Assembly: GCA_944387555.1 (NCBI GenBank)
Contig: CALXFH010000001.1
Coordinates: 82,849-146,848, forward strand
Direction of reading: 5' to 3'
Length of the DNA: 64,000 nucleotides
Source: an uncultured Clostridia bacterium
Lineage (GTDB): Bacteria > Bacillota > Clostridia > TANB77 > CAG-508
Part shown: in pieces, positions 21,900-43,877 of the stretch
How the letters are laid out: each line of letters opens with the position of its first letter
How positions within the stretch are numbered: position 1 is the first letter of the stretch
The notes under the pieces: generated by a model
Seen by the model: only the letters and a program-made list of their open reading frames with translations
What the model was told of the DNA's origin: nothing
The model's database searches: none
Program-made: the position numbers and the translations under genes

Positions 21900-24400
21900 A
21901 ATTATTTTTATATTTTTAGGAAACAGAAGAATAAAAAAGAATAAAAAAGAAAAAAATAGAATAAATTAGAAAATAAGAGAAAAACATAGGAAAATAAGAA
22001 TATTTAAAAATTAGGTTAAATAATAAATAAAATTAATTATAAAAAAATTAGAAAAAAATAGATAAAAAAAGAATAAGCTAGAAAATAAGAGAAAAACATA
22101 TGAAAATAGGAATATTAAAAAAATGGGTAAGATAATAAATTAAATTAATTATGAAAAAATTAGAAAAAAATAGATAAAAAAAGAATAAGCTAGAAAATAA
22201 GAGAAAAAAATATGAAAACAAGAATATTTAAAAAATAATAAATGAAATTAATCACAAAAAAATTAACGAAAATCAAAAATAAGCCGATTTATTTTTTAAA
22301 TAATATAAATATTAATTCTAAAATAATAAAAAAATTAGAAAAAAATAGAATAAATTAGAAAAAAGGAGGAAAGTATATAAAAATAGGGATATTTAAAAAC
22401 TATAAAAAATAATAAATAAATTTAATTATAAAAAATTATTAATGAAAATCAAAAATAAGCTGATTTATTTTTTTATAAATTAAAAAATAATGAAAAAAAT
22501 AGATAAAAAAAGAATAAATTAGAAAATAAAAGAAAACTATATAAAAATAAAGATATTTAAACAAATAAAAATAAAAAAATAATTGACTAACGAAAATCTA
22601 GTAGAAGCCTTTTTAGTATTTTTATTAATATAATTTTATAGAAAAATAAAAAATATTAATGTTTTTTAGAATAGAAAAATCAATAAAAGACAGTATTTTA
22701 AATGGATTAGGGGATTTTTGCAAATAAAAAAATAAAAATAACAAAACGCGAAAATCAAAAATAAGGCTTTTTATTAATATTATTTTTAAAAATATAGTAA
22801 AAAATAAATAAATAAAAATTATTTAATTAATTAAAAATATTTTTTATTTAAAAAGATAACTAAAAGTAAAAAATACAATTAATTATAAAAAATAAAATAA
22901 ATTAAAACAATTATAAAAAAATTAATAAAAAATATTTAATAAATAAATTAATAAAATTTTATAAAAATAAAATATTAATAATAAATAATAAATAATAAAT
23001 AGATAAAGAATAAATTATTTAATTAGAAAAAATATATTAAATAAAAAATAATTAATTAAATAATAAATAAAATAAATATATATATAATTAAATTAATTTA
23101 ATTTTTTTATAAAATAATTCTAAAAAAATAATTAATTAAAATAAATATTTAATTGTTTAATTAATTATAAAACAAAAAATTCATATATATACAAAAAGTT
23201 TTAGAAGTTATTATTATTTTAAATTAAAATAATATTTAAGAAAAAAAGACAATAGATTAAAAGAAAAATAAAAAATGTTAATAAATTTGATAAAAAATAA
23301 TTGGTATAATACTAGGGATTTAAAGTGTTAGTCAATTTTAATAAACTAAAGAAAAAAGTTTACATATAACGTGTTATAAATATTATTTTCATATAATTGA
23401 TCTTGTTTTAAGGAATCTTTTTAAAGGTAAAAATAAAAGTTACTTTATTTTTTATAATAAAAAATAATATAAAAAAATTAAAAATTAATTTGAAAATATT
23501 TTTTTAAAATAAAATAAATAAATAAAAAATTATTTATTAAATAAAAACTAAATAAACAAATAAAAAAATTATAAAAAGAAAATAAAAATAAATAAATTTA
23601 AATAAATAAAAAATAATATAAAAAAATATTTAAATAATTAAAGTAAAAAATAGTTATTTAAATAATAAATACTTTATTTTAAAATTAAATTAATGAAATA
23701 AAAAAATTAAAATAAGTATAAATTTTTTTTGCATATATTATTATATTTTTTAAAATTTAAATAAAAACTTATAAAGATTAAATAAACTAAAATAATAATA
23801 AAAAATAGGTATAAAATTTATAAAAACAATATAAAGATTACTAGGCATTAAAAGGTTTGCTTGATTAATTATGATTTATAAAAAACAATAAAAATAGTTT
23901 ACATATAACTAGAAATTTGAATTATTCTATTTAATTAATAATGCTGTTTGTTAGTATATTGTTAAAAGAAAAATTAAAATGAATATTATTTTTTTATTAA
24001 GAAATTTTAAAATATAAAAAAGAAATTGTAAAAAAAATTTTTAAATATTTTAATTTTAAATAAATAAAAAAATAATAATAAATTGAATTAATTATTTTAA
24101 TAAATAAAAATAATAATTAATTATAAAAAAATAATGATAAAAATAATTATTAATTAAAAAATAAAAAGAATTAAAAAATATAAAAAATTAATTATAAAAA
24201 AATAATAAAATAAATTAATTAAAATAATGATTTAGTAAAAACAAATAAATAAAATTAAATTAATAAAACAATAGAAACGACTTATGAAAATCGAAAATAA
24301 GCCGTTTTATTTTTTTCGATATATAAATTATAGAAAAAATGAAAAAACGATTGATTAATTTTAAAAAATAAAATATAATAAGTAATAAAGTTGTGCACAA
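21900..24400. repeat. Extremely AT-rich non-coding desert. It contains a degenerate 120-180-bp tandem repeat family (21.9-22.8 kb), five copies of GAAAATCAAAAATAAGCYG(A)TTTATTTTTT, and two copies of the TAGGCATTAAAAGG...GTTTACATATAA core
   Basis: Direct repeats at 22038-22110 and 22156-22230; the GAAAATC... motif at ~22262, ~22438, ~22589, ~22745 and ~24281; no ORF over 70 aa and none with normal composition. Confidence 0.75.
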
Positions 24401-27418: not shown

Positions 27419-27443
27419 TTTGAAAAATAAAATAAAAAATATT

Positions 27444-27474
27444 AAACGGTAGATAAAACAAATATCTACCGTTT
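27444..27474. terminator. gyrB intrinsic terminator
   Basis: aaacggtagat-aaaacaaa-tatctaccgttt, a perfect 11-bp stem followed by a T-rich tract. Confidence 0.7.
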
Positions 27475-27574
27475 ATCTATAAAGCCAATAATAATCTCTA
27501 CTAAAACTAATATATCTAATATTAAAACCTAATATATATTACTATATAAATAAGCCTTGATACCACATATATTA

Positions 27575-27910
27575 ATCATTCGCTCGACTATTAATACACC
27601 ATAAGTAACTATATTCGTCCTAAAGCTTAGGACTACTAATAACTACTAAAAAATATTAGATATAAGAATAATCTTAGCTCGAATTTATTACCTATCATTT
27701 GACCATATATTTTAAATAATAAAAAATATATTATAGATATAAAATATTAAATATAAATTAATAATAAATATAGCCTACAAACAAATAATAAATTCTTATC
27801 GCCGACATATTATAATCCATAAAAATGAACCATAATACATCTTTGCTCGAATATTAATAAACGAAATATCATCTATTAATACTCTTCGCTCAACCATTAT
27901 TGACCTTATA
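27575..27910. repeat. Iteron-like array of five direct repeats, TCTT(N)GCTCGA(N2)ATTA(W)TA
   Basis: Copies at ~27578 (cattcgctcgactattaataca), ~27672 (tcttagctcgaatttattacct), ~27794 (tcttatcgccgacatattataatcc), ~27838 (tctttgctcgaatattaataaacg) and ~27884 (tcttcgctcaaccattattgacc). Confidence 0.6.
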
Positions 27911-27967
27911 ATAGTATTATGTTCAAAATTAAAAATTTTATTCAAAAGAATAAAAAATTATAAAAAA

Positions 27968-28029
27968 AATCATTTGTCGAATTTTGTCGATGAAAAGTTC
28001 TTGACAAAAGTGAAAAAAGATTGTAAAAT
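27968..28029 (+). promoter_or_regulatory. Two Spo0A-box-like TGTCGAA/TGTCGAT motifs followed by a consensus sigma-A-type promoter (TTGACA-17-TAAAAT)
   Basis: catttgtcgaattttgtcgatg; TTGACA 28001-28006, 17-nt spacer, TAAAAT 28024-28029. Confidence 0.5.
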
Positions 28030-28039: not shown

Positions 28040-28643
28040 TCGGAGGTGATAAAAATAAAACAATTAACAGTTCAAGAATGGTTACCTATAGAAAAAATTT
28101 ATAATGATCGGATTTGTTAAATTAAAAAATAATAAAATAATTAAAATTTTAAAAGTTAATCCAATTAATTATAATCTAAAGTCAGATTTAGAAAAAGAGT
28201 CTATTTTAAATTCTTATAAGATTTTTTTAAAAACTTGTAATTTTAATATCCAAATTTTAATTCAAAGTAGTAAAGAAGATTTAACTCATCATATTAAAAA
28301 TATCCAAAAAAATATTTCTAAAAAAGAAAATAAATATTTAGAGAAAATTGCAGAAAATTATATTAATTATATTCAACAAATTAATTTAACAAGAAAATCA
28401 TCATCTAAAGATTTTTATATTATTATATCAGATACAATTAATAAAAAAATGAATATTTTTGAATCAGAAGAAATAATTAAAAATGATTTAAAAGATAAAT
28501 ATTTTAAAGTCAAAGAATGTTTAGCTCGTTCCGGAAATTTAGTTTCTGAATTATCTAATTCAAAAGAAGTTGAAGATTTATTTTTCTCTTTATTAAATAC
28601 CAGAAAAAGTTTAAATAATAAATTAATTAAAATAAATAAATAA
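28040..28643 (+). pseudogene. Frameshifted, TM-less paralog of the VirB4 N-terminal-like domain protein
   Basis: The upstream frame encodes ..KQLTVQEWLPIEKIYNDRIC*. ORF 28104..28643 continues in another frame with MIGFVKLKNNKIIKILKVNPINYNLKS..NIQILIQS, matching 2081..3352 (..RRYVMAIECAGINYDL..PIQIYVQT). Confidence 0.5.
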
Positions 28644-28644
28644 A

Positions 28645-28860
28645 AATAATTAATTAAAAAATAATTAATAAAAAAATAATTAATTAAAAAATAATTAATT
28701 AAAAAATAATTAATTAAAAAATAATTAATTAAAAAATAATTAATTTAAAATAAATTAATTTAAAATTAATTAATTAAAAATAAATTAATAAAAAAATAAT
28801 TAATTAAAAATAATTAATAAAAAAATAAATTAATTTAAAATAATTAATAAAAAATTAATG
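28645..28860. repeat. Microsatellite, ~13 units of a 16-bp repeat, AAAATAATTAATTAAA
   Basis: Read directly from the sequence. Confidence 0.9.
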
Positions 28861-29214
28861 ATTAAAAAAATAAAAAAATAAAAATATTCATTAAGAAAAT
28901 TAAAAGATTTTAAAATAGAAATGAGTTACAAAATAAAATAAAAATTATAAGTAGTTGGTTAAAATGAAAAGATAAAATACAAAGATAAAAAATCCAAATA
29001 AAAGTAAAAAAATATTATAAAGAAATAGGTTAAAAATGTTAGGCGTTTAAAAGAAAGCGGTAATGAATAAAATTAATTACCATTCAAGCAGAATTAGAAA
29101 AATAAGTTTACATATAAGAAAATAATAAATAGAAAAATGTTGTTATATTTTTAGGTTTTATTAAAATAAAGTTTAAAGAATTTAAAATATATTTATATTT
29201 AATTTATATAAATA

Positions 29215-29530
29215 TTAAATAAAAAATAAATTAATTTAAAAAATAATTAATTTAAAAAACAATTAATTAAAAAATAATTAATTTAAAAAACAATTAATTA
29301 AAAAATAATTAATTAAAAAATAATTAATTAAAAAATAATTAATTTAAAAAACAATTAATTAAAAAATAATTAATTAAAAATAAATCAATTTAAAAAATAA
29401 TTAATTAAAAAGTAATTAATTAAAAAATAATTAATTAAAAATAAATTAATTTAAAAAATAATTAATTAAAAAGTAATTAATTAAAAAATAATTGATTAAA
29501 AATAAATTAATTAAAAAATAATTAATAAAA
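29215..29530. repeat. Microsatellite, ~19 units of a 16-17-bp repeat, AAAA(A/C)AATTAATT(A/T)AA; a shorter related block lies at 29985-30120
   Basis: Read directly from the sequence. Confidence 0.9.
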
Positions 29531-30165
29531 TAAATAATTAATTACAAAATAATTATTTAAATAAAAATAATTTTTTTATAAAAATAAAAAAAATCTAATT
29601 AAAGAAAAATAATCAATTAAATAATTGTATATAAAGAAAAAATTAAAAATAAAAAGGAGGTTGCATAAATTTTGAAAAGTTTAAAAGAAATTATAAAAGA
29701 AACTTTAAAAAATATAAAAAAGGAATTAAAAGAATTACTAAAAAGGCTTAGGCATTAAAAGAAAAAGAAGAATTGATAAAATGAAAGACAAATTTAAAGT
29801 GAGTAGCTACAAAGGTTTACATATATAAAAATAAAATTCTTAATGCTATTTAAATAAATAAGTTTGTTGTTTCGATTTAGTATTTCAAAAAAATAAAATT
29901 TCATAAAATTAAAAAGAAAAAATAAAATATTTAATTTTAAATATTAATAAAAAATAATCAATTAGAAATAAATTAATTAAAGATAATTAACAAAAAAATA
30001 ATAAAATAAAAAATAAAATAAATTAAAAAATAAATTAATTAAAAAACAAATTAATTAAAAAATAAATTAATTAAAAAAATTAATTAAATAAAAATAATAA
30101 AATAAAAAAAATTAATTAACAAAAATGAATAATTAATTTTATTAAATAGAAAAAGGAGGAGAAAA

Positions 30166-32034
30166 TTGTTAAAAGAAAAAATAGAAAATATATTTAATAA
30201 AAATAAAAAAGAAATTAATGATAATTTTTTTGAAGGGACTATATATAAAAAAGATGAAATATCACCAGCATATATAGATATGCAAAATCCTAAATATTTA
30301 GAAATAGATAATTTATATTATGGAGGATTAATAGTAGTAGATTATTATAGAGAACAGACAGATATCATTTTAAAAACATTAATAGAAACTAATATTAATA
30401 TGAATATTTCTGTTTTTTATGAAAAACAAGATCCGTTTAAAACTATAAAAGATTTAACATATCATATAGGTAATGTAGGAGTAGAATTAAAAGAAAGTAA
30501 TCAAAACAGAGAGGATATAGATATAGCAGCTTTTACATACAATGATGCTAAATATATAAGAAAAGAAATACAAGTAAATAATGAAGATATTTATTATTTA
30601 TATATTTATATTAGTATATATGCAGAGAATGTAAAAGAATTAGAATACTATTTAAATAAAATAGAAGGTATTGCACAAAGCAAAGGCATGCAAACAAGAA
30701 GAGCAAATTTTAGACAAGAAGAATTATTTTTATCTTGCTTACCTATAATGGAAAATAATAATACAATAAAAGATGCAGCGAGAAGAAACGTCTTAACTTC
30801 TGGTTTACTTGCAACATACCCATTTATATCTTCTACTATATTTGACCAAGATGGAATCTTTATTGGTACTAATATATATAATAATTCTTTAGTTTTTATA
30901 GACAGATATAATAATCAAAAATATAAAAATGCTAATATATGTATATTTGGAACTAGTGGAGCTGGTAAATCATTTTATACTAAATTATTAATATTAAGAT
31001 ATAAACTATTAGGGATTAGTCAATATATAATAGACCCAGAAAGAGAGTATGACCATTTATGTGAAAGTTTAAAAGGAACACAAATTAAAATAGGACCTAA
31101 TTCAGATACATATATTAATGTTTTGGAAATAAGAAAGGAAAGTTTGGAAGAAGGAGAAAGCGGATATTTAGCTACTAAAATAGGAAAGCTTATAGGTTTC
31201 TTTAATCTAATATTTGGGGAATTAAATGAAGAAGAGAAGGCTTTAATAGAAGAGAAACTAATAGATACATATAAAATGAAGAATATTAATTTTGATGATA
31301 AAAGCTTATATAAAGAAATAAGAACAAATAAAAAGATAAAAAAGGTATTTAAAGATCCACAAGATATGCCAATACTAGAAGATATATATAATATATTAGG
31401 AAAAGATGAGAGAACTAAAAAATTTCAAATAAAACTTATTCCTTTTGTTAAGGGGTCTATGAAATTCTTTAATAATATATCGAATATAAAATTAGATAAT
31501 GAATTAATAGTTGCAGATATATATGATTTAGGAGAAGAGAATTTAAAATATGGTATGTATTTATTTACAGAAATATTTTGGGACAAGATTAAAGAAAACA
31601 GAAATGAAAAGAAAGCAATATACTTAGATGAAATATGGAGATTAATAGGTGTAACATCTAATAAAGAAGTTGCAAGCTTTATATATAAAATATTTAAGAC
31701 TATTAGAAAATATGGTGGTAGTGGAGTAGCAATAACACAAGATATATCAGATATATTTAGTTTGGATAATGGTACATATGGAAAAAGTATTTTAAATAAT
31801 TCTAGTATTAAAACATTTTTTGCATTAGAAGAGGAAAATATAAAAATACTTTCAGATTTTACTAATTTATCAGAAAAAGAAAAAGTAGAAATTAAATCTT
31901 TAAAAAGGGGAGAGTGTTTAATGTTTGTTGGTGATGAACATATATTAACTAAAATAGAATGTTCTGAATTAGAACAAGAAATATTAGAGGGAGGAAAGAA
32001 TAAGAATAATGAAAAAAATAATATTAGCAATTGA
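30166..32034 (+). CDS. VirB4-like ATPase paralog with an N/K-rich biased composition
   Basis: Walker A CIFGTSGAGKSFYT; Walker B KKAIYLDEIWRLIG (DE-x-W); the N-terminal region parallels 181..2205; RBS AAAGGAGGAG. Confidence 0.65.
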   Translation: MLKEKIENIFNKNKKEINDNFFEGTIYKKDEISPAYIDMQNPKYLEIDNLYYGGLIVVDYYREQTDIILKTLIETNINMNISVFYEKQDPFKTIKDLTYHIGNVGVELKESNQNREDIDIAAFTYNDAKYIRKEIQVNNEDIYYLYIYISIYAENVKELEYYLNKIEGIAQSKGMQTRRANFRQEELFLSCLPIMENNNTIKDAARRNVLTSGLLATYPFISSTIFDQDGIFIGTNIYNNSLVFIDRYNNQKYKNANICIFGTSGAGKSFYTKLLILRYKLLGISQYIIDPEREYDHLCESLKGTQIKIGPNSDTYINVLEIRKESLEEGESGYLATKIGKLIGFFNLIFGELNEEEKALIEEKLIDTYKMKNINFDDKSLYKEIRTNKKIKKVFKDPQDMPILEDIYNILGKDERTKKFQIKLIPFVKGSMKFFNNISNIKLDNELIVADIYDLGEENLKYGMYLFTEIFWDKIKENRNEKKAIYLDEIWRLIGVTSNKEVASFIYKIFKTIRKYGGSGVAITQDISDIFSLDNGTYGKSILNNSSIKTFFALEEENIKILSDFTNLSEKEKVEIKSLKRGECLMFVGDEHILTKIECSELEQEILEGGKNKNNEKNNISN

Positions 32035-33289
32035 AAATAAAAAGTTAGAAGATAAATTAAAAGAAAATAATAATATAAAAATAATATGTAACAATTTACA
32101 ATATAGAGAAGCTATTTTAGAAATATTAGATAAAAATAAAAATATAGATTTTATTTTAATTAATGAAAATTTACCAGGAATAATTAGTATAGAAGAATTA
32201 GTAAAAAAAATAAAAATAATTAATAATAAAATTAATATAATTATTTTTTTAGAAAAAGATGATATTAATAAAATAAATAGATTAAAAAAATTAAATATAA
32301 ATAATATTTATTTAAATAAAAAAATAAATATAAATAAAATAATTAATTTAATTCTTAAAAATAATAAATTTAATAATAATTATAATAAAAATAATTTATT
32401 AAATTATAAAATAAAAAAAGAAAAAATAAATAATAATAAATTAATTAAAATAAATAATTTTAAAAATAATAAATTTAATAAATTAAAAATTATTTTAAAT
32501 AAAATTAAATTAAATAAAAATAAATTAAACAATAATATTCATTTAAATAATAAAAATAAAAAAGAAAATAAATTAATTACTATAATGGGAAAAAGAAAAA
32601 CAGGAAAAAGTACAATAATAAATTTATTATTAATTTATTTATTACAAAAAAATAAAAAAATATTATTAATTAATTTAAATAAACAATTAGAAAATAATTA
32701 TTTAATTTTATTCGGAAAAAAATATTATAAAATTAAAAATAATTATTTTAATAAATATAATTTAATTAATAATAAATTAAATAAAAAAAATATTTTTTTA
32801 AAATCTGAAATTAAAATAAATAATAATTTATTCTTTTTAAATAATTTCCAAAAAATAATTCAACAAAATAATTATAATAATATTTTAGAATATTTTACTA
32901 AATATTATATTAAGAAATATGATTATGTTTTAGTAGACATCGGAGATAGTGCAAATAGAAGAATAAAACAAAAAATAGTAAAAATAAGTGATAAAAACAT
33001 AATGGTTATGACCAATGATTTACTAGGCATTAAAGAGGTAGAGAGATTAAGTCTGGAGTCAAACTTAAAAGAAGATAACAAAGAAAATAGTTTACATATA
33101 ATACTTAATAAATATTATTTTAATTCAATTAGCAACAGCATTTTTAAAAATTTGGTTAAAAGAAAAATAAAATTTAGTACAATTTTTTATAATAAAAAAT
33201 TTATAAATCTTTCAAATAAAATTTTAAAAAATAGAAAATTTAATTTTAATTTATTTTTTAAAAATAAATTAAAAAATATTTTAAAATAA
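32009..33289 (+). CDS. Pseudo-receiver domain fused to a ParA/MinD-family ATPase (TadZ/CpaE-like architecture); extreme N/K/I low complexity
   Basis: N-terminal receiver-like fold in which the phospho-acceptor position is N (FILINENLPG). P-loop ITIMGKRKTGKSTIINLL; Walker B-like DYVLVDIGD. The 3' end overlaps a satellite core copy (33033-33102). Confidence 0.45.
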   Translation: MKKIILAIENKKLEDKLKENNNIKIICNNLQYREAILEILDKNKNIDFILINENLPGIISIEELVKKIKIINNKINIIIFLEKDDINKINRLKKLNINNIYLNKKININKIINLILKNNKFNNNYNKNNLLNYKIKKEKINNNKLIKINNFKNNKFNKLKIILNKIKLNKNKLNNNIHLNNKNKKENKLITIMGKRKTGKSTIINLLLIYLLQKNKKILLINLNKQLENNYLILFGKKYYKIKNNYFNKYNLINNKLNKKNIFLKSEIKINNNLFFLNNFQKIIQQNNYNNILEYFTKYYIKKYDYVLVDIGDSANRRIKQKIVKISDKNIMVMTNDLLGIKEVERLSLESNLKEDNKENSLHIILNKYYFNSISNSIFKNLVKRKIKFSTIFYNKKFINLSNKILKNRKFNFNLFFKNKLKNILK

Positions 33290-36200
33290 AATTGATTAAA
33301 TAAAAAAATAAATAAAATTAATTAAATTAATTAATAAAAATAAAATAATTATTTTTAATAAAATAAAAAATTAATTAAAAAATAATTATTAATTAAAAAT
33401 AAAAAATAATTAATTTAATAAAATATTAAAATAAATATAAAAAATATTTTTTAAATATTTAAATAATTTAATTAATTAAATATTTAATAAAAATAAAAAT
33501 AATTTTTTATAATAAATATTAATTTTTATTTTTTAATAATTTAGGAATAAATTATTTTAAAAATTTTAAATTATAAAATTATATTTTTAAAAATAAAAAA
33601 ATTATATAAAAATATTTTAAAAAACTTATAAGAATAAAAATAGTTAATAAAATTATAGAAAAAATAATCAATAAAATGTTAGGCATTAAAAGGATTAGAG
33701 AGTTATTAATAAAATATAGAAAAACAAGAAAAAGGTTTACATATAATAATTAATAAAAACAAATCAGATATGGAGATTAGATATATTTTTAATAATTTTA
33801 CTGGTAAAAAATTAAAATTTACTATGATTTAATATTATTAAAAAATAATATTAAATAAAAAATAATTAAACAAATTAAAATATTAATTTAAAAATATTTA
33901 TAGAATAAATTAAAAAAATATTTTAATAAAAAATAAATAAAATTAATTAATAAAAATTATTCAATAAAATAAAAAATAAAATTAATCATTACTAATTAAT
34001 AAAAAATAATTAATTAATAATAAAAAAATAAATAATTAAATAAATAAAATAATGAAATAAATGAAAATAATTTAATTAAATAAAAAATAAATATTAAAAT
34101 AATTAAATAATTAATTTATTTAAAATAATTATTAAAAATAAAAAATTAAATTATAAAAAAATAAAATAAATTTTTTCTAATAATTTTATTAATAAAATAG
34201 AAATTTAAAATATAAAAAAATGTTTTACCAGATATAAATGTTTTTAATTAAAATAAAAGTTCACAAAAAAGACAATAGCATAAAAGAATAATAAAAAATA
34301 TTTATGAAATTGGTAAAAAATAATTAATAAAAAACTAGGCATTAAAAGAATTGAACGATTATTAATAAGCCACTGAATAATAAACAAAAAAGTTTACATA
34401 TAACATATTATAAATATTATTTTTCTTGGATTATTAATCAGTGTTTTCAAGAATTTTCTTAAATACTAAAATTAAATTCATTTTATTTTTATAAAAATAA
34501 ATTAAAATAAATAATATAAAAAATTAATTTTATAAAATTAATAAAAAATATTTAATTTAAAAATAAATAAAATTAATTAATAAAAAAATTATTTAATTAA
34601 ATTAAATAATAATAAAAAATAATAATTTAAAAATAAATAAATTAATTAAATAAATAAAAAAATATTTTAATAATTAAAATATTAATTAATTTAAATTAAT
34701 AAAAAACAATTATTAATTAAAAAATAAAAATAGTTAATTAAATAAAAAATTAAAAAATAAATATAAAAAATATTTAAATAATTAATTAATATAAAATAAT
34801 AAAAATTAATTTTAAAAAATATATTTTAAATTATAAACTAAAGAACCAAAAATTATAGAGGAAAAATTATAGTTACTTTTCTGTTAATCTTAAAAAGCAT
34901 ACATAAGGATAAAAAATATAAAATAGAAAGCAAAATATAGTAAAAATAATTAATGAATTACTAGGCATAAAAGGGATAGACAAGCTAGATTTTAAATAAA
35001 TAAAATAGAAGAAAATAGTTTACATATTTTTGTTAAATTAAATTTGATTTTATCTAATTATTTAAAATAATTTAAAAAATTGTTGTTATAAAAAAGAAGT
35101 TTATTATAATTTTTTATCAAATATTAAAATAGAAAATAGAAATTATAAAAAATTAATTTAAAATATTTTTTAAAAATAAAAAATATTTAATAAATAAAAT
35201 TAATTAATAAAAAGTTATTTAATAAAATAAAAAATAAATAAAAATAATAAAATAATTATTTAAAAACAAATAATTTAAAATTTAATTAAATATAAAATAA
35301 TTATTAATTAAAAATAAAATTAATTTAAAAAATATTAAAATAAATATAAAAAAGATTTTTTTAAATATTTATATAATTTAATTAATTATTTATAAAAATA
35401 AAAATAATTTTTTATAACAAATATAATTTTTGATTTTGAATAATAAGAAGAAATTATATTAAAAAAAATAATATAAAAGGATTTTATAATGACTATCATA
35501 ATAAAATAGTTAATAAAAGCATAAAAAATAATTAATAAAATGTTAGGCATTAAAAGGATTGCACGATTAATAACAGAGAAAGAAAAAACAACAAAAATAG
35601 TTTACATATAACGAATGATTTAAATTATTTTTATTTAATAAAAGAGTCTGATTTAAAAAAATTATTAAAACAAAGATTAAGTTTATTATTATTTTTTATA
35701 ATAAAAAATTTAAAAATATAAAAAAGAAAATATTAAAAATTAATTTTAAAACATTTTTTAAAATTAAATAAAAAATATGTTAATAAAAAAATAAATAAAA
35801 TTAGTTAATAAAAAATTTATTTAATTAAATTAAAAAAATAATAAAAAATAATTAAATAATTAAAAATATAAATAATAAAAAAATAATAATTAAAAAATAA
35901 TTTTAATTAAATAAAAAAATATTTAATTAATTAAAATAAAAAATAAATATTTAAAATATTAATTTAAAATAATTTTATTATAAAAAATAAAATAAAATTA
36001 AAAAAATTATTTTTATAGCAATAATATTTTTGATAATAAAAAATAAAAAAGGTAGTATTGAAATTTTTCTAATTTAAAGAATAGTTTAAATTAATAAAAA
36101 AATATAATAAAAACAAAATAATTTGTGAAAATGTTAAAAAAATAAATTTTAAAAAGTTAGGCATTAAAGGGATTGCAAGATTAATAATAGATTAGAAGAA

Positions 36201-36850
36201 GACAAGAAAAATAGTTTACATATAATGAATAATTGAAATTACTTTTATTTAATCTAGAGAACTTATTTTAAAAATATTATTAAAATAAAAATAAAATTTG
36301 TATAGTTTTCATTCTAATAATTTAGAAAAAAGAATATTAAAAAATAAAAAATTAATTTAAATTTATTAAAAAAATAGAATAATAAAAAATAAAATTAATT
36401 ATTTAAATAAATAAAAAATATTTAATAAAAAATAAATTAATTATTTAAATAAATAAAAAATAATTAATAAAAAAATAAATTAATTATTTAAATAAATAAA
36501 AATAATAAAATTAATTATTTAATAAATAAAAAGAATTAATAAAAATAAATTAGTTGTTTTTAATAAATAAAAAATAAAATTTTTTAAAATTTGTTTTTAA
36601 ATCTAAATTTGATTTTTAAGTAAAGCATAAAGATTTAAAATCTGAAATTAAAATCTAAAAAATATTCCAGAGAATTAATTAAATATTAAATAGAAAGATA
36701 ATATTTTTTAAAAAATTGTTATTTATATTTAATTTAAATATACGCAAATAAGCATTTTTAAAAATATGAACGAGTAAAAAGAATAAAAGAAAACAGTTAA
36801 CATATAAAAGAAAACGTTAACTATATTAAAGAAGTATTTTTAAAAGATTC
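33033..36850. repeat. Satellite-like tandem array of ~7 units with a 580-660-bp period. Each unit has a conserved ~70-bp core, (T)TAGGCATTAAAAGG-N45-AGTTTACATATAA
   Basis: Core copies at 33033-33102, 33679-33746, 34336-34403, 34962-35027, 35543-35611, 36157-36225, and a degenerate copy at ~36770-36830. The spacings are 646, 657, 626, 581, 614 and ~610 bp. Confidence 0.8.
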
Positions 36851-37066
36851 TACAAAAATTATAAACTAAAAAGAATATAAAAAATTATTTATTATTTTAT
36901 AAAAAGAAAATTATAAAATTAATTTATTTAATTTTATAAATAAATAATTATTTTAATTAATAATTAGAAAAATAAATTATTTTATTTTAAATAAAATAAT
37001 TAAAATTAAAATAATTAAAAATAAAAAATAATTAAATAAAAATAGAAAAAGAAAGGATGAAAAAAT

Positions 37067-37792
37067 ATGGAAATGGAAAATTTAGAAAAAAATAATAATT
37101 TAGAAATAGAAAACAATTTAGAGGTGGAAAATGAACAAAAAGGATTCTTAGAATCTACTTTAGGAAAAACAATTAATGCAGCAGTGGATATTGGTATTAG
37201 AGCTTTATTACCTGACTTTATAGATGAACAAGTAATTAATATAAAGGATAATTTATTAGAGTATGGACTAAAAGATGGAATAACAAAAACTATTGATGAT
37301 GCTATCGATTTAGGAAAAAGTGCTATAGGTATTTTTAAAGGAGACTTTGAAAATGTATCTCAAATGCAAAGTGCAGTTCAAAATGGAGGTTTAATTGATG
37401 GAGTTTCTGATTTATTAGATGTAGTAGTAGATAAAGTAAATGATGCTGGTTTAATTAGTAATAATGTAGCAAAAACAATTAAACAAGGAAAAGACGTTAT
37501 TTTAAGTAATGTAGAAAGTAATATAGAAAATACATTTAGTAAACAATATGAAGCTATAGAAAATGTAGATAATTATATTAGTAGCTGGAAAGAAAGTTTT
37601 GAAAAACAAGATTTTGATGCTATGGAAAAAGAATACCAAAAACTAGAAGAACAAATGCAAGATATTGCACCTATTACTAAAACAATAGAAGAAGCTAAAA
37701 CTATAGAAGTATTACATAACTTAATTAAAAATAATGGACAAGACTTTAATTTAAGTAATGAACAATTAGAATTAGTGGAAAAATTAAAATAA
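37067..37792 (+). CDS. Hypothetical acidic protein
   Basis: ORF with normal composition and an RBS (AAAGGATGA) 7 nt upstream; no family recognised. Confidence 0.4.
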   Translation: MEMENLEKNNNLEIENNLEVENEQKGFLESTLGKTINAAVDIGIRALLPDFIDEQVINIKDNLLEYGLKDGITKTIDDAIDLGKSAIGIFKGDFENVSQMQSAVQNGGLIDGVSDLLDVVVDKVNDAGLISNNVAKTIKQGKDVILSNVESNIENTFSKQYEAIENVDNYISSWKESFEKQDFDAMEKEYQKLEEQMQDIAPITKTIEEAKTIEVLHNLIKNNGQDFNLSNEQLELVEKLK

Positions 37793-37814: not shown

Positions 37815-38783
37815 ATGGAGAAAAAAATAAATACTAATATTGAAAATAATAAACGAAATGAAAAAGAAATAAATAATAAAAATAATACATATAAAGAGGA
37901 TAATAAAAAGAAATTTAAATTATTAGATCCAAAAAATGATGTTGTATTTCAAATGTTATTTCTTAAAAATAATTTAGCAAAAGGATTATTAGATAATATT
38001 TTAATAGATAAAATAATTTCTGTAAATGTTGATGTAAATAAACAGTTATTAGGAGATAGACCAGAAGATAAAATAGGAATAGTAGATTTAAGAGCAATAA
38101 TAAATAATGAAATAGAATGTGAAGTAGAAATGCAAATGTTTTATTTTAATAATTTTGTTCCGAGATTTTTAGATTATTGGTCTAAAATGTATTCAAGACA
38201 ACTAAAAAAAGGAGATAATTATGACTTATTACATAGAGTTATTTCTATTGCTATTATTAATCAAAATATTCCAGACTTAAAAGGATTACCAGCACATACT
38301 ATATGGAATATAAGAGAATCTAGGAATCATAGAAAAATATTGACAAATAACTTAGAGTTACATATAATAGAAATACAAAAGGCTAAAGAGGAATATAAAC
38401 ATAACAAGGATGATAAATTATTACAATGGATAAAGTTTCTAGAAAACCCAGAAAGCAAGGAGGTAGATAGAATAATGGTAAGTAATAAAGAAATAAAAGA
38501 AGCTAAAAAAGAATTATTTAGCTTAAGCCAAGATGAAGAAAACCAAAGAATAGCAGATTTTAGAGAAAGAGAAATTATGGATAGAAAGGATATCTACGAA
38601 ACAGGAAAGGATGAAGGTAAGGCAGAAGGAATAAAAGAAGGAAGAAAAGAAGGAATAAAAGAAGCAAGAGAAACTTTTATAATAAATTTACTTAAGATTA
38701 AAATGCCAATTGATAAAATAATAGAATTTACAAGTGCAACTAAAGAAGAAATTGAAAAAATAAAGGAAAGTAAAAATCTATAA
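37815..38783 (+). CDS. Rpn-family (YhgA-like) PD-(D/E)XK recombination-promoting nuclease / putative transposase
   Basis: N-terminal DPKNDVVFQMLF...EVEMQ pattern; C-terminal repeat-helix domain ...KEGRKEGIKEARETFIINLLKIKMPIDKIIEFT..EEIEKIKE. Confidence 0.6.
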   Translation: MEKKINTNIENNKRNEKEINNKNNTYKEDNKKKFKLLDPKNDVVFQMLFLKNNLAKGLLDNILIDKIISVNVDVNKQLLGDRPEDKIGIVDLRAIINNEIECEVEMQMFYFNNFVPRFLDYWSKMYSRQLKKGDNYDLLHRVISIAIINQNIPDLKGLPAHTIWNIRESRNHRKILTNNLELHIIEIQKAKEEYKHNKDDKLLQWIKFLENPESKEVDRIMVSNKEIKEAKKELFSLSQDEENQRIADFREREIMDRKDIYETGKDEGKAEGIKEGRKEGIKEARETFIINLLKIKMPIDKIIEFTSATKEEIEKIKESKNL

Positions 38784-38828: not shown

Positions 38829-39134
38829 ATGGTAAAAAATCAAAGAATAGAAGAAATTAAAAGAGAATTAATGAATTTAAATCAAAATGAAGAAAATCAA
38901 AGGCTTATAGATTTTAGAGAAAGAGAATTAAGGGATATGATAGATCTTTACGAAACTGGAAAAGATGAAGGAAGGAAAATAGGAATAGCAGAAGCAAGAA
39001 AAGAAGCAAGAAAAACTATAATAACAAATTTACTTAAGATGAAAATACCAATTGATAAAATAATAGAAGTTACAAATGCAAGTAAGGAAGAAATTGAGAA
39101 AATAAAGAAAAGAAATTATAATAAAGAAGTTTAA
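38829..39134 (+). CDS. Tandem partial paralog of the Rpn nuclease, C-terminal domain only
   Basis: LNQNEENQRLIDFRERELRDMIDLYETGKDEGRKIGIAEARKEARKTIITNLLKMKIPIDKIIEVT.ASKEEIEKIKK aligns to the last ~90 aa of 37815..38783. Confidence 0.55.
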   Translation: MVKNQRIEEIKRELMNLNQNEENQRLIDFRERELRDMIDLYETGKDEGRKIGIAEARKEARKTIITNLLKMKIPIDKIIEVTNASKEEIEKIKKRNYNKEV

Positions 39135-39273: not shown

Positions 39274-39314
39274 GTGTCCCCAAATGCACATTTTTGAGCA
39301 AAAGGAAACGTCCC
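39274..39314 (-). repeat. GGGAC-element copy A (reverse orientation), immediately 3' of the XRE gene stop
   Basis: Reverse complement reads gggacgtttccttttgctcaaaaatgtgcatttggggacac; compare copies at 44684 and 47707. Confidence 0.7.
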
Positions 39315-39685
39315 TATTTTTTATTTTTTTCATATTCTTTGAAAAATGAATATGATGTAGTTAATATTTTATAATAATAGTCCTTCATTTCTTCAGAACT
39401 TCTATTTAATATTCTATCTATTTTTTGTGAGGTTGAATTTGTTTCTTCATTACCAAATAAAATATAGTCTGTAGATACTCCAGTAAATGCTACTATACGG
39501 CATAATGTTTTTATACTTAATGAACGTTCGCCTCTTTCTATTTGCCCTAAGAATATATCAGATATATCAACTGCTTCTGAAAATACTTCTCTACTCATTT
39601 TCATGTTTTCTCTTGCTTTTCTTATTCTTTCTCCTACTTCTAAATTATTTGGTATCTTTGTATCCATATTATTCCTCCCAAACAT
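39314..39685 (-). CDS. XRE-family helix-turn-helix transcriptional regulator, divergent from the DGR target gene
   Basis: HTH LSREVFSEAVDISDIFLGQIERGERSLSIKTLCRIVAFTGVSTDYIL. Confidence 0.75.
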   Translation of the reverse strand: MFGRNNMDTKIPNNLEVGERIRKARENMKMSREVFSEAVDISDIFLGQIERGERSLSIKTLCRIVAFTGVSTDYILFGNEETNSTSQKIDRILNRSSEEMKDYYYKILTTSYSFFKEYEKNKK

Positions 39686-39995: not shown

Positions 39996-41375
39996 ATGTA
40001 TAATTATTCTAAAAATTATAATTTTAATTCTAATAAAGATAAAATAAAAGACAAAATAAAAAAGATAAAAACAAATAATTCTGGTATTACTATTGTTGCT
40101 TTAGTTGTAACTATTATTGTTTTATTAATTTTAGCAGGAATAACAATAGGAGCAATTACTGGAGATAATGGTATTATTAATAAAGCGCAAGAAGCTAAAA
40201 ATGATACCAATTATGCTCAATGGGAAGAAAAGATTGACCAAGCTATCATAGATGCAGAAAGTAAATACAGAAATCCAACTATGATTAATGTAAAAGAAGA
40301 GTTAAGAGATAAAGGCATAATTGAAGATTATGACAAAGTAGATGACAAAACAGGAGCTATAACAACAGTAGATGGTACCATAATAGAAGGTAAGCTTGAT
40401 GATTATATAGAGTTTGGACCAGGTATGGTAGCGGATAAGAATGAAACTTATACAGATGCAAATGGAGACACAGCAACGATACCAAAAGGTTTTGAGATAT
40501 TAGAAGATGCAAGTACAGTAGATGATGGTTTAGTTATTCAAGATGAAAGTGGTAACCAATTTGTATGGATACCAGTAGAAACACCAGTAGCAAGTGCAGA
40601 AGCAGATGGAACAACAAATAAAGCAATGGCAATAAAGAATGGAAATAATTATAGAGGTTTACTTTATGACTTTACTAGTACAGGCTCAACAGTAAAAAGT
40701 GGATGTACAACGACTACAAGTAGTTATAGAGAGCCAGCTTATTTAACAGATTCAAGTTATGCGGATGGGTCTTCATATAATCAAGATGGAGATGGAAATA
40801 AAATAGTAACAGAAGATAGTCTACAACAAGAATATAATAAAATGATGGCAAGCGTTGAACAATATCATGGCTTTTATGTAGGAAGATATGAACTTGGTTT
40901 AGAAGGAACAACGCCAGTAGTAAAAAACGCAAGTACGAATTCAGGTGTTACAACAGCAGATGCAAGTAATTCAAATACTAAGATGTGGTATGGCTTATAT
41001 AGTAAGTGCAAAGAATTTGCACCAGAAGATAGTAATAAATCAGTGGTAAGTAGTATGATATGGGGAAGTCAATATGATGAAATGCTTAATTGGATGCAGG
41101 CAAATGGAGAAGATGTGTCAGCATCAGCTGATAACACTGAAACAATAAGAAATAATTCTACAAAAACAGGAAGTCAAGAAAAAGATTTTATGAAAAATGT
41201 ATATGACCTTTATGGATGTCATTATGAGTGGAAATTAGAGGCCAACATCACGAAAGAACGTGTTTATCGTGGAGGTAATTCTAGCAGTAGCAGCGCTCCT
41301 AGCAGCCGTCGCAGCACCTATTCGAGCAATGCCAGCAGTACCTATTCAGCCCGTCTCACTTTATATATAAAGTAG
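39996..41375 (+). CDS. DGR target (variable) protein. N-terminal pilin-like hydrophobic anchor, beta-rich central region, and a C-terminal FGE-sulfatase/C-type-lectin-fold-like domain ending in the VR
   Basis: N-terminus ..NNSGITIVALVVTIIVLLILAGITIGAITG; C-terminus ..DLYGCHYEWK..ERVYRGGNSSSSSAPSSRRSTYSSNASSTYSARLTLYIK; strong RBS AGAAGGAGG. Confidence 0.8.
   Translation: MYNYSKNYNFNSNKDKIKDKIKKIKTNNSGITIVALVVTIIVLLILAGITIGAITGDNGIINKAQEAKNDTNYAQWEEKIDQAIIDAESKYRNPTMINVKEELRDKGIIEDYDKVDDKTGAITTVDGTIIEGKLDDYIEFGPGMVADKNETYTDANGDTATIPKGFEILEDASTVDDGLVIQDESGNQFVWIPVETPVASAEADGTTNKAMAIKNGNNYRGLLYDFTSTGSTVKSGCTTTTSSYREPAYLTDSSYADGSSYNQDGDGNKIVTEDSLQQEYNKMMASVEQYHGFYVGRYELGLEGTTPVVKNASTNSGVTTADASNSNTKMWYGLYSKCKEFAPEDSNKSVVSSMIWGSQYDEMLNWMQANGEDVSASADNTETIRNNSTKTGSQEKDFMKNVYDLYGCHYEWKLEANITKERVYRGGNSSSSSAPSSRRSTYSSNASSTYSARLTLYIK
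41240..41360 (+). repeat. DGR variable repeat (VR) at the 3' end of the target gene
   Basis: Matches the TR at 43522..43632; over a 93-nt core, 14 of 16 mismatches correspond to adenines in the TR. Confidence 0.8.
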
Positions 41376-41489
41376 TACTGAGACCTGAGTTGTGAGTATT
41401 GGAAATAGTAGAAAATTAAAACATTAAGAGAATTTAATTTTTTAGGTTGTAAAAGAATAAAAACTGTAGTAAAATTTAAGTTAATAGAA

Positions 41490-41580
41490 AGGTAGGTAGG
41501 AAATTCCCTTGCAGGGCGAAGACGCCAAAAGGGGATTTCCTACCGGACTAGTCCGGTAAGACTAGTCCTATTTTTTTGCG
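41490..41580 (+). other. GC-rich nested palindromes downstream of the VR (candidate DGR target-recognition hairpin / terminator)
   Basis: ggtaggaaattccc-[ttgcagggcgaagacgccaaaa]-ggggatttcctacc; ggactagtcc-ggtaa-gactagtcc-tattttttt; gcgaaaaaataggact. Confidence 0.5.
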
Positions 41581-41648
41581 AAAAAATAGGACTAAGAACA
41601 ACGAAAGGTTACATAAAACCTTATAAAAATAGAAAGGTGGGATTTTTT

Positions 41649-42080
41649 ATGAAATTTTTAAAAAGAATAGAAAAAATAAAGTCAGAAAATGAAGATAAAA
41701 TAGTATTAGCAAGATGTGGATTATTTGTAGTGGCAGTAGGAAATGATGCAAGAATATTAAGTAAAGAATTTGGATTAAAGAAAACTTGTATGAAAAGAGG
41801 GGTATGTAAAGTAGGAATACCTGCTAGCTATGCATTAAAATATTTAAAATTAATAGAAGATAAAGGTTATAGTTATTTATTATATGACTATGATAAAAAT
41901 ACAAAAGAAATGATAGAAAAATATAGATATATTGGTACTAATAAAGTAGAAGAAATTAGCATAGATTGTCCTTCTTGTGAAAATTATAAAGAACAAGATG
42001 TTATAGATATCTTTGAATTATTAAGAAGAAAAAAAGAAAAAAATAAAAAAGAAGTAAATGGGGAAAAAGAAAATGAATGA
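41649..42080 (+). CDS. Small protein with a MutS domain I (mismatch-binding domain)-like sequence, located between the DGR target and Avd. The ORF track uses a GTG start at 41637
   Basis: KIVLARCGLFVVAVGNDARILSKEFGL...VCKVGIPASYALKYLKLIEDKGYSYLLYD parallels MutS [25 protein letters not shown]...[29 protein letters not shown]. The Phe is conserved and the Glu is not. AAAGGTGGG lies 8 nt upstream of ATG 41649. Confidence 0.45.
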   Translation: MKFLKRIEKIKSENEDKIVLARCGLFVVAVGNDARILSKEFGLKKTCMKRGVCKVGIPASYALKYLKLIEDKGYSYLLYDYDKNTKEMIEKYRYIGTNKVEEISIDCPSCENYKEQDVIDIFELLRRKKEKNKKEVNGEKENE

Positions 42081-42468
42081 AAAAAGTAGAGAAAATAACA
42101 TAAGAGAAAATGGAAAAAATGAACTAATATTAATACCAAAATATGAAAGATATATGCAGTATATGATAGAAATAATTTTAAAAATGCCAAGAACAGAAAA
42201 ATTTAATATAGGAAATGAATTTAAAACAGTTATGTATAAATGCTTAGAAAATATACTGTATTTAAATAAAATAGAAATATCAAAAAGAATGTATTATTTA
42301 AATTTAATAGATGCAGGTTTAAATATTCAAAGAATAATGCTTAGGATAATGTTAAAAAATAAGTGGATAGATAAAAAGAAATATTTAGTATCAATGGAGT
42401 TGTTATATGAAATAGGAAAAATATTAGGAGGATTAATAAAGTTTTATGCCAAAAACAATAAGAAATAA
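42058..42468 (+). CDS. avd: Avd-like DGR accessory protein (small basic helical protein); the likely start is ATG 42073
   Basis: ~130 aa, basic, predicted all-helical; sits immediately upstream of the RT and overlaps its start. Confidence 0.55.
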   Translation: MGKKKMNEKSRENNIRENGKNELILIPKYERYMQYMIEIILKMPRTEKFNIGNEFKTVMYKCLENILYLNKIEISKRMYYLNLIDAGLNIQRIMLRIMLKNKWIDKKKYLVSMELLYEIGKILGGLIKFYAKNNKK

Positions 42469-43462
42469 GTATTATAAATATTTAACATTTAATAGGCTTA
42501 TGGAAGCACATAAGAAAGCAAGAAGGGGAAAAGGATATAGAGAAGAAATAATAAAATTTAATCTAAAACAAGAAGAATATATAATGTATCTATTAGAAAG
42601 GTTGAGGAATAAGAGTTATAAACATGGAGGCTATAAAGTATTTTATATAACAGAGCCAAAACCTAGAAAAATAGAACGTTCAAGATATATAGATAGAATA
42701 GTACATACATTTTATGTAGAAAACTTTTTAAAACCATATTTTATGCCTTGTTTTATAAATACAAGTTATGCATGTATTCCATGTCGTGGTATGCATAAGG
42801 CATGTTTAGATGTGCAAAAAGCTATGAAACATTGTAAAAATATTTGGGGAGAATATTACATTCTAAAGATGGATGTAACAAAATATTTCCAAAATATAGA
42901 TAAGGACATATTGTTAGAAATATTAAAGAAGAAAATAAAGGATAAAGATTTATTGTGGTTAACAAAAGAAATAATATATTCAAATAAAGGAAAAAAGAGT
43001 TTACCAATTGGAAATTATACATCACAAATGTTTGCAAATATTTATTTAAATGAATTAGACCAATATGTGAAAAAAGAATTGGGAATAAAATATTACTTTC
43101 GTTATATGGATGACTCAGTTTTATTTGTACGTGGCAAAGAAGAAGCTAAATGCTATTTAGAAAAAATAAAAGAATTTATTTATTCTAAATTAGAACTAAC
43201 ATTAAATAAAAAAACACAAATATTTAAATCTAAACAAGGAGTAAATTTTTGTGGTTATAAAATAAATGAATATAGACTAAAGATTAGGGATAAAGGAAAA
43301 AGAAAATTAAAGAAAAAAATCGTAAAGTTAAAAAAGTTAATAAAAGAGGGAGAGCTTACAAGTGATGATGCTAAAAAATATTTAGTAGGTCATCTAGGAT
43401 ATATAAAAATAGCAGATACATATAAGTTAGAAAATAAACTATTTTATAGAGAAAATAAGTAA
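42446..43462 (+). CDS. DGR-type reverse transcriptase
   Basis: Motif 4 LPIGNYTSQMFANIYL (the [ILV]GxxxSQ DGR signature); motif 5 FRYMDDSVLF (YMDD); motif A region ILKMDVTKYFQNI; 338 aa with no maturase or endonuclease domains. Confidence 0.85.
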   Translation: MPKTIRNKYYKYLTFNRLMEAHKKARRGKGYREEIIKFNLKQEEYIMYLLERLRNKSYKHGGYKVFYITEPKPRKIERSRYIDRIVHTFYVENFLKPYFMPCFINTSYACIPCRGMHKACLDVQKAMKHCKNIWGEYYILKMDVTKYFQNIDKDILLEILKKKIKDKDLLWLTKEIIYSNKGKKSLPIGNYTSQMFANIYLNELDQYVKKELGIKYYFRYMDDSVLFVRGKEEAKCYLEKIKEFIYSKLELTLNKKTQIFKSKQGVNFCGYKINEYRLKIRDKGKRKLKKKIVKLKKLIKEGELTSDDAKKYLVGHLGYIKIADTYKLENKLFYRENK

Positions 43463-43521
43463 ATTTAGAAAATATAAAAAATTATTAAGTAAAAATAATT
43501 TTAATTAGGGATAAATCAAAA

Positions 43522-43632
43522 GGCCAACAACACAATAATCGTGGAGGTAATTCTAACAATAGCAACGCTCCTAGCAATCGTAACAACAACAATCCGAACA
43601 ATACCAACAGTAACAATTCAGCCCGTCTCACT
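43522..43632 (+). repeat. DGR template repeat (TR), rich in AAC/AAT codons
   Basis: ggccaacaacacaataatcgtggaggtaattctaacaatagcaacgctcctagcaatcgtaacaacaacaatccgaacaataccaacagtaacaattcagcccgtctcact. Confidence 0.85.
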
Positions 43633-43877
43633 CTAATACGATTCTAGATTATATATTTTAAGGAATATATACAATGAAAGTATTAGTATTAAAGAGATTT
43701 ATTCCTTCCTAATATAGGTAAAAAAGTATCAGTAAAATAGGTATTAGTAAAAATACCAAGAAGTATTTTGAATATACTTATTTTACAATTAATTATTTAA
43801 TTTAAGTTGATATATTTTTATTTAATTTAATTTATTTTATTTTTTAAATACTTAAAATTAATTTAAAGAGGTAAAAA

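Follow-up and report, generated by a model that had tools for sequence, protein, structure and literature searches.

The 64-kb stretch of contig CALXFH010000001.1 from an uncultured Clostridia bacterium analyzed here (the window) includes the origin of replication of a ~24% G+C genome and contains, between gyrB and gyrA, a tandem array of ~600-bp units. The array begins within an open reading frame (ORF 32009-33289) whose product, referred to below as REC-ParA, combines a receiver-like domain with a ParA/MinD-type ATPase. There is little room for doubt that the array arose by duplication of the final ~145 codons of the REC-ParA gene together with the spacer downstream of it, and that its units are the decayed copies, some in tandem and others dispersed nearby. 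Two short boxes stand out in these units, and sequence comparisons suggest that purifying selection preserves their nucleotide sequence in all copies, including the one inside the gene. The reading that we favor, with a probability of roughly 0.45, is that the boxes make up an array of cis-acting protein-binding sites, centromere-like or recruitment-like, that was built from coding sequence. The unusual feature is the origin of a cis-acting repeat array by exaptation of a gene tail. Full-text literature searches gave no description of this locus or array.

An initial annotation of the window had noted a tandem array with a period of ~620 bp and conserved cores at positions 33033-36850. The array is real: six full cores and one degenerate core, all on the plus strand, span positions 33024-36807 with a period of 582-656 bp. 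Each core consists of box1 (consensus YTAGGCATWAAAR, occurring as TAGGCATTAAAAGG) and box2 (RGTTTACATAT), and direct inspection of the sequences shows that the two boxes share the sub-motif CATWWAA in direct orientation. In a two-box search, box1 starts at the first coordinate given for each core in Table 1, with spacings of 656, 656, 626, 582, 614, and ~582 bp (the last one to the degenerate copy), which agree with those reported previously, the first core being at 33024 and not at 33033. The array is not confined to the originally described interval, since there are four further cores, at 23313 and 23842 in the dnaN-recF spacer and at 29040 and 29749 in the spacer between the TrsD and VirB4 genes. 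This brings the total to 10 full cores and 1 degenerate core over ~14 kb beside oriC.

Single boxes occur in this AT-rich window at about the frequency expected by chance (18 versus 14 expected for box1 and 26 versus 17 for box2). Their paired occurrence is not a chance effect: in all low-GC loci fetched, exact copies of box1 have a box2 (with at most 1 mismatch) at the right distance in 72 of 72 cases, and 99 of the 108 exact copies of box2 are accompanied by a box1 with at most 2 mismatches. The box-to-box distances fall into classes of 63-65 (n = 101), 51-55 (n = 29), and 42-44 (n = 2), with one core at 68 and none at 45-50 or 56-62, a pattern suggestive of steps of about one helical turn that leave both boxes on the same face of the helix.

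The Pfam matches of REC-ParA (Response_reg and CbiA) are weak; in PDB, the family profile matches the PF-32 ParA of Borrelia (E = 1.3e-6), as well as MinD and Soj. None of its 723 homologues is named. In most of the family, LGIK and SLHII are conserved and separated by exactly 18 residues (LGIK-x18-SLHII), and these are the motifs encoded by the boxes of the first core. The earlier description of the array as noncoding is therefore correct for units 2 to 7 but not for the first core, which is coding within ORF 32009-33289. In translated searches, both the downstream units and the dnaN-recF spacer yield remnants of REC-ParA residues ~282-426 (e.g., at 35652-35774, E = 1e-11). The proposal of a decayed tandem gene array proved right in kind but not in detail, the units being decayed copies of the 3' ~145 codons of REC-ParA with a spacer instead of pilin-size genes. 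The homology between units beyond the cores, also noted in the initial annotation, is real but weak: same-register local alignments of the 360 nucleotides (nt) after the core score 24.5, 47.4, and 42.7, versus 18-26 for out-of-register and 15-34 for shuffled controls. The intervening DNA, previously described in part as AT-only simple sequence, is A-rich and holds 7-10% G+C.

Three related loci (relatives are designated here by L numbers) show the same arrangement at an earlier stage. In L034, L126, and L132, the REC-ParA gene is followed by four ~790-bp copies that are 80-84% identical to its last ~600 nt. Because these copies have 2 to 6 stops, many frameshifts, and pN/pS values of 0.5-0.85, they are pseudogenes. 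The copies are pseudogenic and, in the window, have decayed to A-rich filler under the strong AT mutation bias of the lineage.

A pattern scan for the two-box core, with one genome per species, found it in ~40 loci from uncultured gut Clostridia, a few of which are labeled Bacilli. About 30 species carry 1 to 7 such units, many of the loci having 2 to 7 copies at a spacing of 480-890 bp, and in each genome scanned the motif is found only at this locus. In this clade of low-GC gut Clostridia, the vertically inherited gene order is gyrB-TrsD-VirB4-(REC-ParA)-array-P241-gyrA, where P241 is a 241-residue protein. Loci retrieved through VirB4, a sample that is independent of the box motif, display the order dnaA-dnaN-recF-gyrB-TrsD-VirB4-P241-gyrA across a wide lineage, in which it is inherited vertically. 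Distant VirB4-retrieved members have neither REC-ParA nor cores, the arrays being confined to a sub-clade. An independent contig, L062, reproduces the array of the window. L058 has no TrsD, VirB4, REC-ParA, or P241 between gyrB and gyrA and still carries, at 2850-5300, three tandem two-box units with a 545-bp period and a lone box2. At the same place, L084 has a different tandem array (13000-16100) of 4 units of 880-1070 bp, with boxes CAAAAGTAAACATAAAT and RGTTTACCAATATAAT ~88 nt apart and a GTAAAC/GTTTAC inverted pair.

Several comparisons point to selection on the boxes as DNA. In the 10 nongenic copies of the window, 96% of the G/C positions within the boxes are retained, versus 12% of the 59 G/C positions found elsewhere in the gene tail. 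In six gap-free arrays, each from a different species (the window, L131, L027, L023, L064, and L031), the boxes are 86-100% identical in pairwise comparisons, whereas the middle part between the boxes and the 40-nt flanks are 64-78% identical, which we take to be close to the AT-rich background after optimal alignment. Likewise, the boxes are the only conserved islands in the TrsD-VirB4 spacer copies of five genomes; outside the boxes, noncoding copies retain only a weakly conserved A-T at +22 to +24, corresponding to the Leu codon of an ...RL motif. L131 has six copies with a common derived variant of box1 and diverged middles; hence, divergence after amplification spared the boxes. They also persist downstream of REC-ParA genes that have lost both LGIK and SLHII (L023 and L064). 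Within the gene itself, the glycine codon of LGIK is GGC in the window and in 8 of 8 genic copies retrieved by protein identity, whereas GGC accounts for 3% of the Gly codons in the window's genes; this use of a rare codon points to selection at the nucleotide level. The VirB4-retrieved locus L073 has GGG at this position. A similar codon argument for box2 was dropped, as TTA-CAT-ATW is the default encoding here and AGT and GGT are one step apart.

A protein-binding array, one of the candidate explanations in the initial annotation, gives the best functional fit to this selective conservation of two boxes. Box1 and box2 would then form a bipartite site for a sequence-specific DNA-binding protein or complex. 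We favor this reading because the constraint is on the double-stranded sequence and not on RNA structure or coding, because the site is bipartite with an apparent helical phase and its copies are co-oriented, and because the motif is restricted to one origin-proximal locus that encodes ParA-type and conjugation-type ATPases. Duplication of the gene tail would have multiplied a site that was already inside coding sequence, as parS is inside spo0J. The outcome would be 10 or 11 co-oriented sites in and around an operon encoding ParA-type and type IV secretion system (T4SS)-type ATPases (TrsD and VirB4, with a coupling-protein-like gene nearby), and the array could serve as a centromere-like or recruitment platform tying origin-proximal DNA to this machinery.

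Precedents include parS inside spo0J, sopC, P1 parS, clt of Streptomyces plasmids, and overdrive/VirC1. As in the ParA centromeres (sopC of F, parS of P1, and parS inside spo0J of Bacillus subtilis), several co-oriented copies of a short motif, with strictly coupled boxes, are found in cis near the origin, beside and partly inside a ParA-family gene: the first site lies inside the gene for REC-ParA, whose ATPase domain is closest to plasmid-partition ParA PF-32, MinD, and Soj. The bipartite structure with phase-preserving spacing recalls the A and B boxes of P1 parS. In contrast to those centromeres, the putative binding sites described here arose by duplication of a coding segment, and the ATPase carries a receiver-like domain, as do TadZ/CpaE. 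The Streptomyces clt (TraB repeats at the 3' end of traB) and Agrobacterium overdrive/VirC1 also have cis-acting repeats within, or immediately beyond, the 3' end of an ATPase gene. Their loci, like this one, encode ATPases of the FtsK/HerA/VirB4 and ParA types, of the kinds that deliver DNA to a transfer machine. These systems differ in motif sequence; in clt, 8-bp repeats cluster over ~50-200 bp, whereas the locus discussed here is chromosomal and vertically inherited, with no relaxase or complete T4SS identified in it.

Several points weigh against this reading. Many relatives that have REC-ParA lack any cores, so the sites are not essential to the operon. No ParB-like or ribbon-helix-helix domain was found among the neighboring genes, P241 has no family assignment and no usable model (the pLDDT of its AlphaFold model is 44, too poor for a fold search), and some relatives with an array have no counterpart of the helix-turn-helix (HTH) gene at 39314-39685. 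Specific DNA binding is not a requirement for TadZ-like REC-ParA proteins, and a spacing of 0.5-1 kb between sites is unlike that in known centromeres, where the repeats are tens of base pairs apart. The helical-phase argument may rest on only two independent deletion events, and box1 is altered in some genomes, e.g., to TTACGTAAT in L128. Finally, most loci were found by the pattern with both boxes, so that the invariance of the boxes across species is partly by construction; the gap-free arrays, anchoring on one box, and the loci retrieved by protein provide support that is free of this bias.

The arrays are also subject to recombination. Whole units are common to different spacers at 83-93% identity, and in L122 a 455-nt stretch of the dnaN-recF copy shows 93% identity to a unit from the TrsD-VirB4 spacer; units move or become homogenized between spacers. 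Comparison of strains of one species reveals mosaic cassettes, composed of stretches of other cassettes and of the gene, with gene-like patches; this mosaicism shows that short-tract gene conversion takes place. The arrays are still stable despite this conversion: L126 and L127 have 62 differences elsewhere in 19 kb, and their arrays differ by a single 11-nt indel. Pairwise DNA comparison with the closest relative was swamped by low-complexity matches, and one-to-one orthology of the units could not be set.

Such dynamics would be expected if the array were a nonfunctional by-product of unequal crossing-over and gene conversion, in which conversion with the protein-selected boxes of the gene and among the copies keeps resetting the boxes. 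The mosaic young arrays with their active short-tract conversion and the units common to different spacers agree with this explanation, as do the box variants fixed within genomes (concerted evolution), the coincidence of the boxes with the best-conserved protein motifs, and the many related species without arrays. We nevertheless consider it unlikely. The islands of identity in old arrays are 10-14 nt long amid diverged sequence, too short for homologous conversion to single them out; the boxes persist where the gene has no boxes or is itself absent; an equally constrained stretch coding for NKYYF has not been retained; the rare GGC codon points to nucleotide-level selection in the gene; and 2-4 kb of neutral DNA kept across species is unexpected in a small bacterial genome.

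The same promoterless partial copies could be a store of silent cassettes, as in Neisseria pilS and Borrelia vls, serving as conversion donors that vary the 18-residue loop between LGIK and SLHII, with the boxes as homology anchors. The layout is the expected one, with tandem partial copies directly downstream of an expressed gene, conserved flanks around a variable center, and signs of conversion among the copies. The loop is the most variable part of the protein, three of its residues differ between strains of one species, and the presence of a diversity-generating retroelement (DGR) in the same locus indicates that diversification is at home here. Diversification by these copies is nevertheless improbable. 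The reading frame is lost in the window copies, where the box distance is 54-55 versus 65 in the gene; 5 of the 5 copies in the array are shorter by 10-11 nt between the boxes and all have stops, so that conversion would truncate the protein, and even young cassettes have many frameshifts and 2 to 6 stops. Where the gene differs between strains, it does so by single-nucleotide changes, and these do not correspond to the cassette codons. Furthermore, the target is a cytoplasmic ATPase, anchors of 14 nt are too short (nothing but boxes of 10-14 nt is left in old copies), and copies are found in other spacers as well.

The cores might instead be transcription elements, each carrying either a promoter (box2 contains TATAAT, or TTTACA-N16-TATTAT) or another signal for the expression of the genes after each spacer (recF, VirB4, and P241). 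Every core has the orientation of the gene that follows, with the last core 260-500 nt upstream of that gene; a -10-like hexamer follows TTTACA by 16-18 nt in 37% of cores versus 12% of control positions, and an exact TATAAT is found within box2 in 39% of cores. However, the region contains 126 promoter-like sequences versus 127 expected from shuffling, conservation of the putative -10 is far below that of GTTTACA, and the enrichment of this hexamer may reflect residual NKYYF coding sequence. The TATAAT in box2 has no -35 element, plausible canonical promoters lie directly upstream of TrsD (28001-28029, from a promoter scanner) and of recF (~24350-24390, by eye), and box1 is left unexplained. 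A role in transcription has a low likelihood.

Comparably low odds attach to a recombinase-driven or mobile unit, with the boxes as sites of a Xer-type tyrosine or other site-specific recombinase and the ~600-bp units being excised, reinserted, and spread among nearby spacers. Orphan XerD sites are known in B. subtilis, and the units have moved among three spacers, always in one orientation. The box2 sequence AGTTTACATA matches 10 of the 11 bases of the reverse complement of the XerD arm of B. subtilis dif, TTATGTAAACT (PMC3025954). This similarity covers a XerD-like arm only: the flanks of box2 are not conserved, there is no central region or second (XerC) arm beside it, and the many copies are located near the origin, whereas dif is at the terminus. 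The boxes are not inverted repeats and form no hairpin, the duplication junctions of young arrays are not at the boxes, and arrays remain identical, except for one 11-nt indel, between strains that differ elsewhere. The conserved locus contains no recombinase gene (an Rpn-like gene is sporadic), the motif is absent from the rest of each genome scanned, and nothing similar to the array was found in plasmid or phage collections.

The array is not a CRISPR (clustered regularly interspaced short palindromic repeats), as the initial annotation had held, since it has a 582-656-bp period, mutually homologous spacers, and a bipartite repeat. Folding of the core (mean z of -0.18) and the absence of consensus pairs in 24 copies (RNAalifold) provide no sign of RNA structure, which had been suggested for inspection, and none of the hairpin signal of an integron attC site; an RNA element was rejected, Rfam having no match in the array. 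No integrase domain was detected among the neighboring ORFs scanned, a subset of the ORFs in the window. Remnants of insertion sequences (IS) or miniature inverted-repeat transposable elements (MITEs), whose terminal repeats the cores might have matched, are at odds with the collinearity of the units with the gene tail and with the restriction of the motif to this locus. The idea of a curved-DNA satellite was not borne out: there is no 10-11-bp A-tract periodicity, with z at ~0 for 10.5-11 bp in all three spacers, and the periodicity of the TrsD-VirB4 spacer is that of a 15-bp microsatellite instead of helical phasing. The array contains no TTATCCACA DnaA boxes, which argues against a DnaA-box cluster or oriC. 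A variant parS was rejected, as no palindrome recurs in the window, and PADLOC detected only generic ATPase and HTH matches to defense systems.

Like the long direct repeats of Escherichia coli (LDR/ldr-rdl) and the ibs-sib type I toxin-antitoxin loci, the array has tandem ~500-600-bp intergenic units, and in the window each unit carries a hydrophobic minus-strand ORF of 31-54 codons that starts at an ATG in box1 (MPNILLIIF...) and is longer than composition predicts. The median length of this antisense ORF is 24 codons; an antisense small protein (MP[NS]...) was rejected because the ORF has 3-10 codons in many arrays (L012, L027, L031, and L059) and no Shine-Dalgarno sequence, and no conserved peptide is seen. 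Each of the four rival explanations is contradicted by at least one test but retains some probability. The array resembles centromere or recruitment arrays in logic and silent cassettes in layout but lacks some of the features that define each.

As for the setting, the initial annotation was right to place the array near the origin: the start of dnaA is at 18531, and the sign of the GC skew switches at ~18 kb. The left side of the window carries rnpA, yidC, jag, mnmE, mnmG, rsmG, soj, and spo0J on the minus strand, and the right side carries dnaA, dnaN, recF, gyrB, and gyrA on the plus strand. The ~18-kb interval from the end of gyrB (27418) to the start of gyrA (45232) contains genes for a TrsD-like protein and a VirB4-like ATPase, ORF 32009-33289, the array, P241, an Rpn-type nuclease gene, the HTH gene, and a complete DGR (Table 1).

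Table 1. Positions of the cores and of the surrounding features in the window (box distances in nt)
Feature	Positions	Strand	Remarks
TrsD/TraD-like conjugative-transfer protein	28104..28643	+	First gene of conserved operon; NCBIfam NF041427; synteny
VirB4-like conjugal-transfer ATPase	30166..32034	+	Pfam P-loop_TraG, NCBIfam CD1110 family; 80-95% identity across clade
REC-ParA gene, 426 aa	32009..33289	+	Parent of repeat units; receiver-like N-domain fused to ParA/MinD-type ATPase
Core 1, genic, box distance 65	33024..33101	+	box1 TAGGCATTAAAGAG encodes (L)LGIK; box2 AGTTTACATATAA encodes SLHII
Core 2, noncoding, box distance 54	33680..33746	+	
Core 3, noncoding, box distance 55	34336..34403	+	
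Core 4, noncoding, box distance 55	34962..35029	+	box2 with 2 mismatches at 3' end
Core 5, noncoding, box distance 55	35544..35611	+	
Core 6, noncoding, box distance 55	36158..36225	+	
Degenerate last unit	36740..36833	+	box1 decayed to TATACGCAAATAAGCAT; box2 AGTTAACATATAA at 36795-36807, then partial 21-nt duplicate
A-rich spacers between cores	33290..37066	+	7-10% G+C; decayed gene tail and intergenic DNA
Dispersed core, dnaN-recF spacer, box distance 44	23313..23369	+	Flanks show gene-tail remnants, E 5e-9
Dispersed core, dnaN-recF spacer, box distance 54	23842..23908	+	
Dispersed core, TrsD-VirB4 spacer, box distance 65	29040..29117	+	Same spacer holds cores in other species
Dispersed core, TrsD-VirB4 spacer, box distance 65	29749..29826	+	Same spacer holds cores in other species
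Antisense hydrophobic ORFs, one per window unit	33550-33686, 34240-34342, 34870-34968, 35386-35550, 36065-36164	-	
P241, conserved all-helical 241-aa protein	37067..37792	+	Always after array; conserved synteny
HTH gene	39314-39685		
DGR target gene	39996-41375		Variable repeat (VR) at 41266-41363; homologues recur at this locus in relatives
DGR MutS_I-like ORF	41637-42080		
DGR Avd	42058-42468		
DGR reverse transcriptase (RT)	42446-43462		
DGR template repeat (TR)	43538-43635		Differences from VR confined to TR adenines
DGR RT-14 RNA	43631-43786		Rfam RF02921

The DGR (39996-43786) is located ~3 kb downstream of the array; a link between the two was rejected because the TR/VR pair is unrelated to the cores. 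The gene for an Rpn-family PD-(D/E)XK nuclease or transposase-like protein is apparently split (37815-38783 and 38829-39134), and its sporadic nature is seen in L005, L028, and L061, where it is shifted in position or absent. Beyond gyrA, there is a T4SS coupling-protein-like gene (51776-53494, minus strand; TrwB_AAD_bind and TraG-D_C), adjoined by a DnaD-domain gene and a DnaI/DnaC-like loader split into two ORFs (region of 49070-50065 and 48049-49069, both minus strand); L122 and L129 also have, next to gyrA, the DnaD-domain gene and the two small ORFs at the location of the loader. Between the gyrB terminator hairpin (27443-27475) and the TrsD promoter (28001-28029), a noncoding stretch of ~500 nt (27440-27990) is conserved in another species (L058, 2350-2830), contains 4-5 copies of TTYGCTCGAMWATTAATA, and is without a match in Rfam; a role as an operator or iteron-like region is possible. 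In the TrsD-VirB4 spacer, a 15-nt unit, AAAATAATTAATTAA, forms microsatellite-like runs at 28644-28860 and 29210-29540, and the other contig of the same strain (L062) has a 61-nt indel within 28479-37776 that presumably falls in these repeats, although it was not located.

DnaA-box clusters are found at 18339-18550, 20031-20187, and 21439-21876. The third one, downstream of dnaN, lies inside repeats of ~100-170 nt of the type AAAAATTAGAAAAAAATAGA...GATAATCATATG (region 21439-22560), and the gyrB-gyrA spacer of L058 has a motif that resembles these repeats, with the DnaA-box-like TGTGGAAAA. Another motif, GAAAATCAAAAATAAGCCGATTTATTTTTT, occurs at 22268, 22444, 22750, and 24286 on the plus strand and at 14056 on the minus strand, with 17 matches at up to 2 mismatches versus 7 expected. 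It is often located directly upstream of recF in several species (dnaN-recF spacers of L064, L081, L084, and L129) and looks like a terminator, though with a weak stem. A search with up to 3 mismatches found no canonical parS (TGTTTCACGTGAAACA) in the 64-kb window, despite the presence of soj (10002-10808) and spo0J (9127-9975), which speaks in favor of the binding-site reading.

Many gut Clostridia have this conserved locus in the gyrB-gyrA interval, and metagenomes contain thousands of homologues without a name. If the boxes are binding sites, they clearly exemplify how a stretch of protein-coding sequence can give rise to a cis-acting DNA array, with old and young stages of its formation preserved in related genomes. 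They would also suggest an undescribed use of conjugation-type and ParA-type ATPases at the replication origin. A more speculative, and distinctly unlikely, extension is that a domesticated chromosomal conjugation-type machine (TrsD, VirB4, the coupling-protein-like ATPase, and REC-ParA) holds or handles the origin region through the coding-derived box array across the clade, for origin anchoring, segregation, or chromosomal DNA transfer. Even if the array is nonfunctional, it would show that a small bacterial genome can retain decayed DNA for an unusually long time and that fragments of a pseudogene can evolve in concert there.

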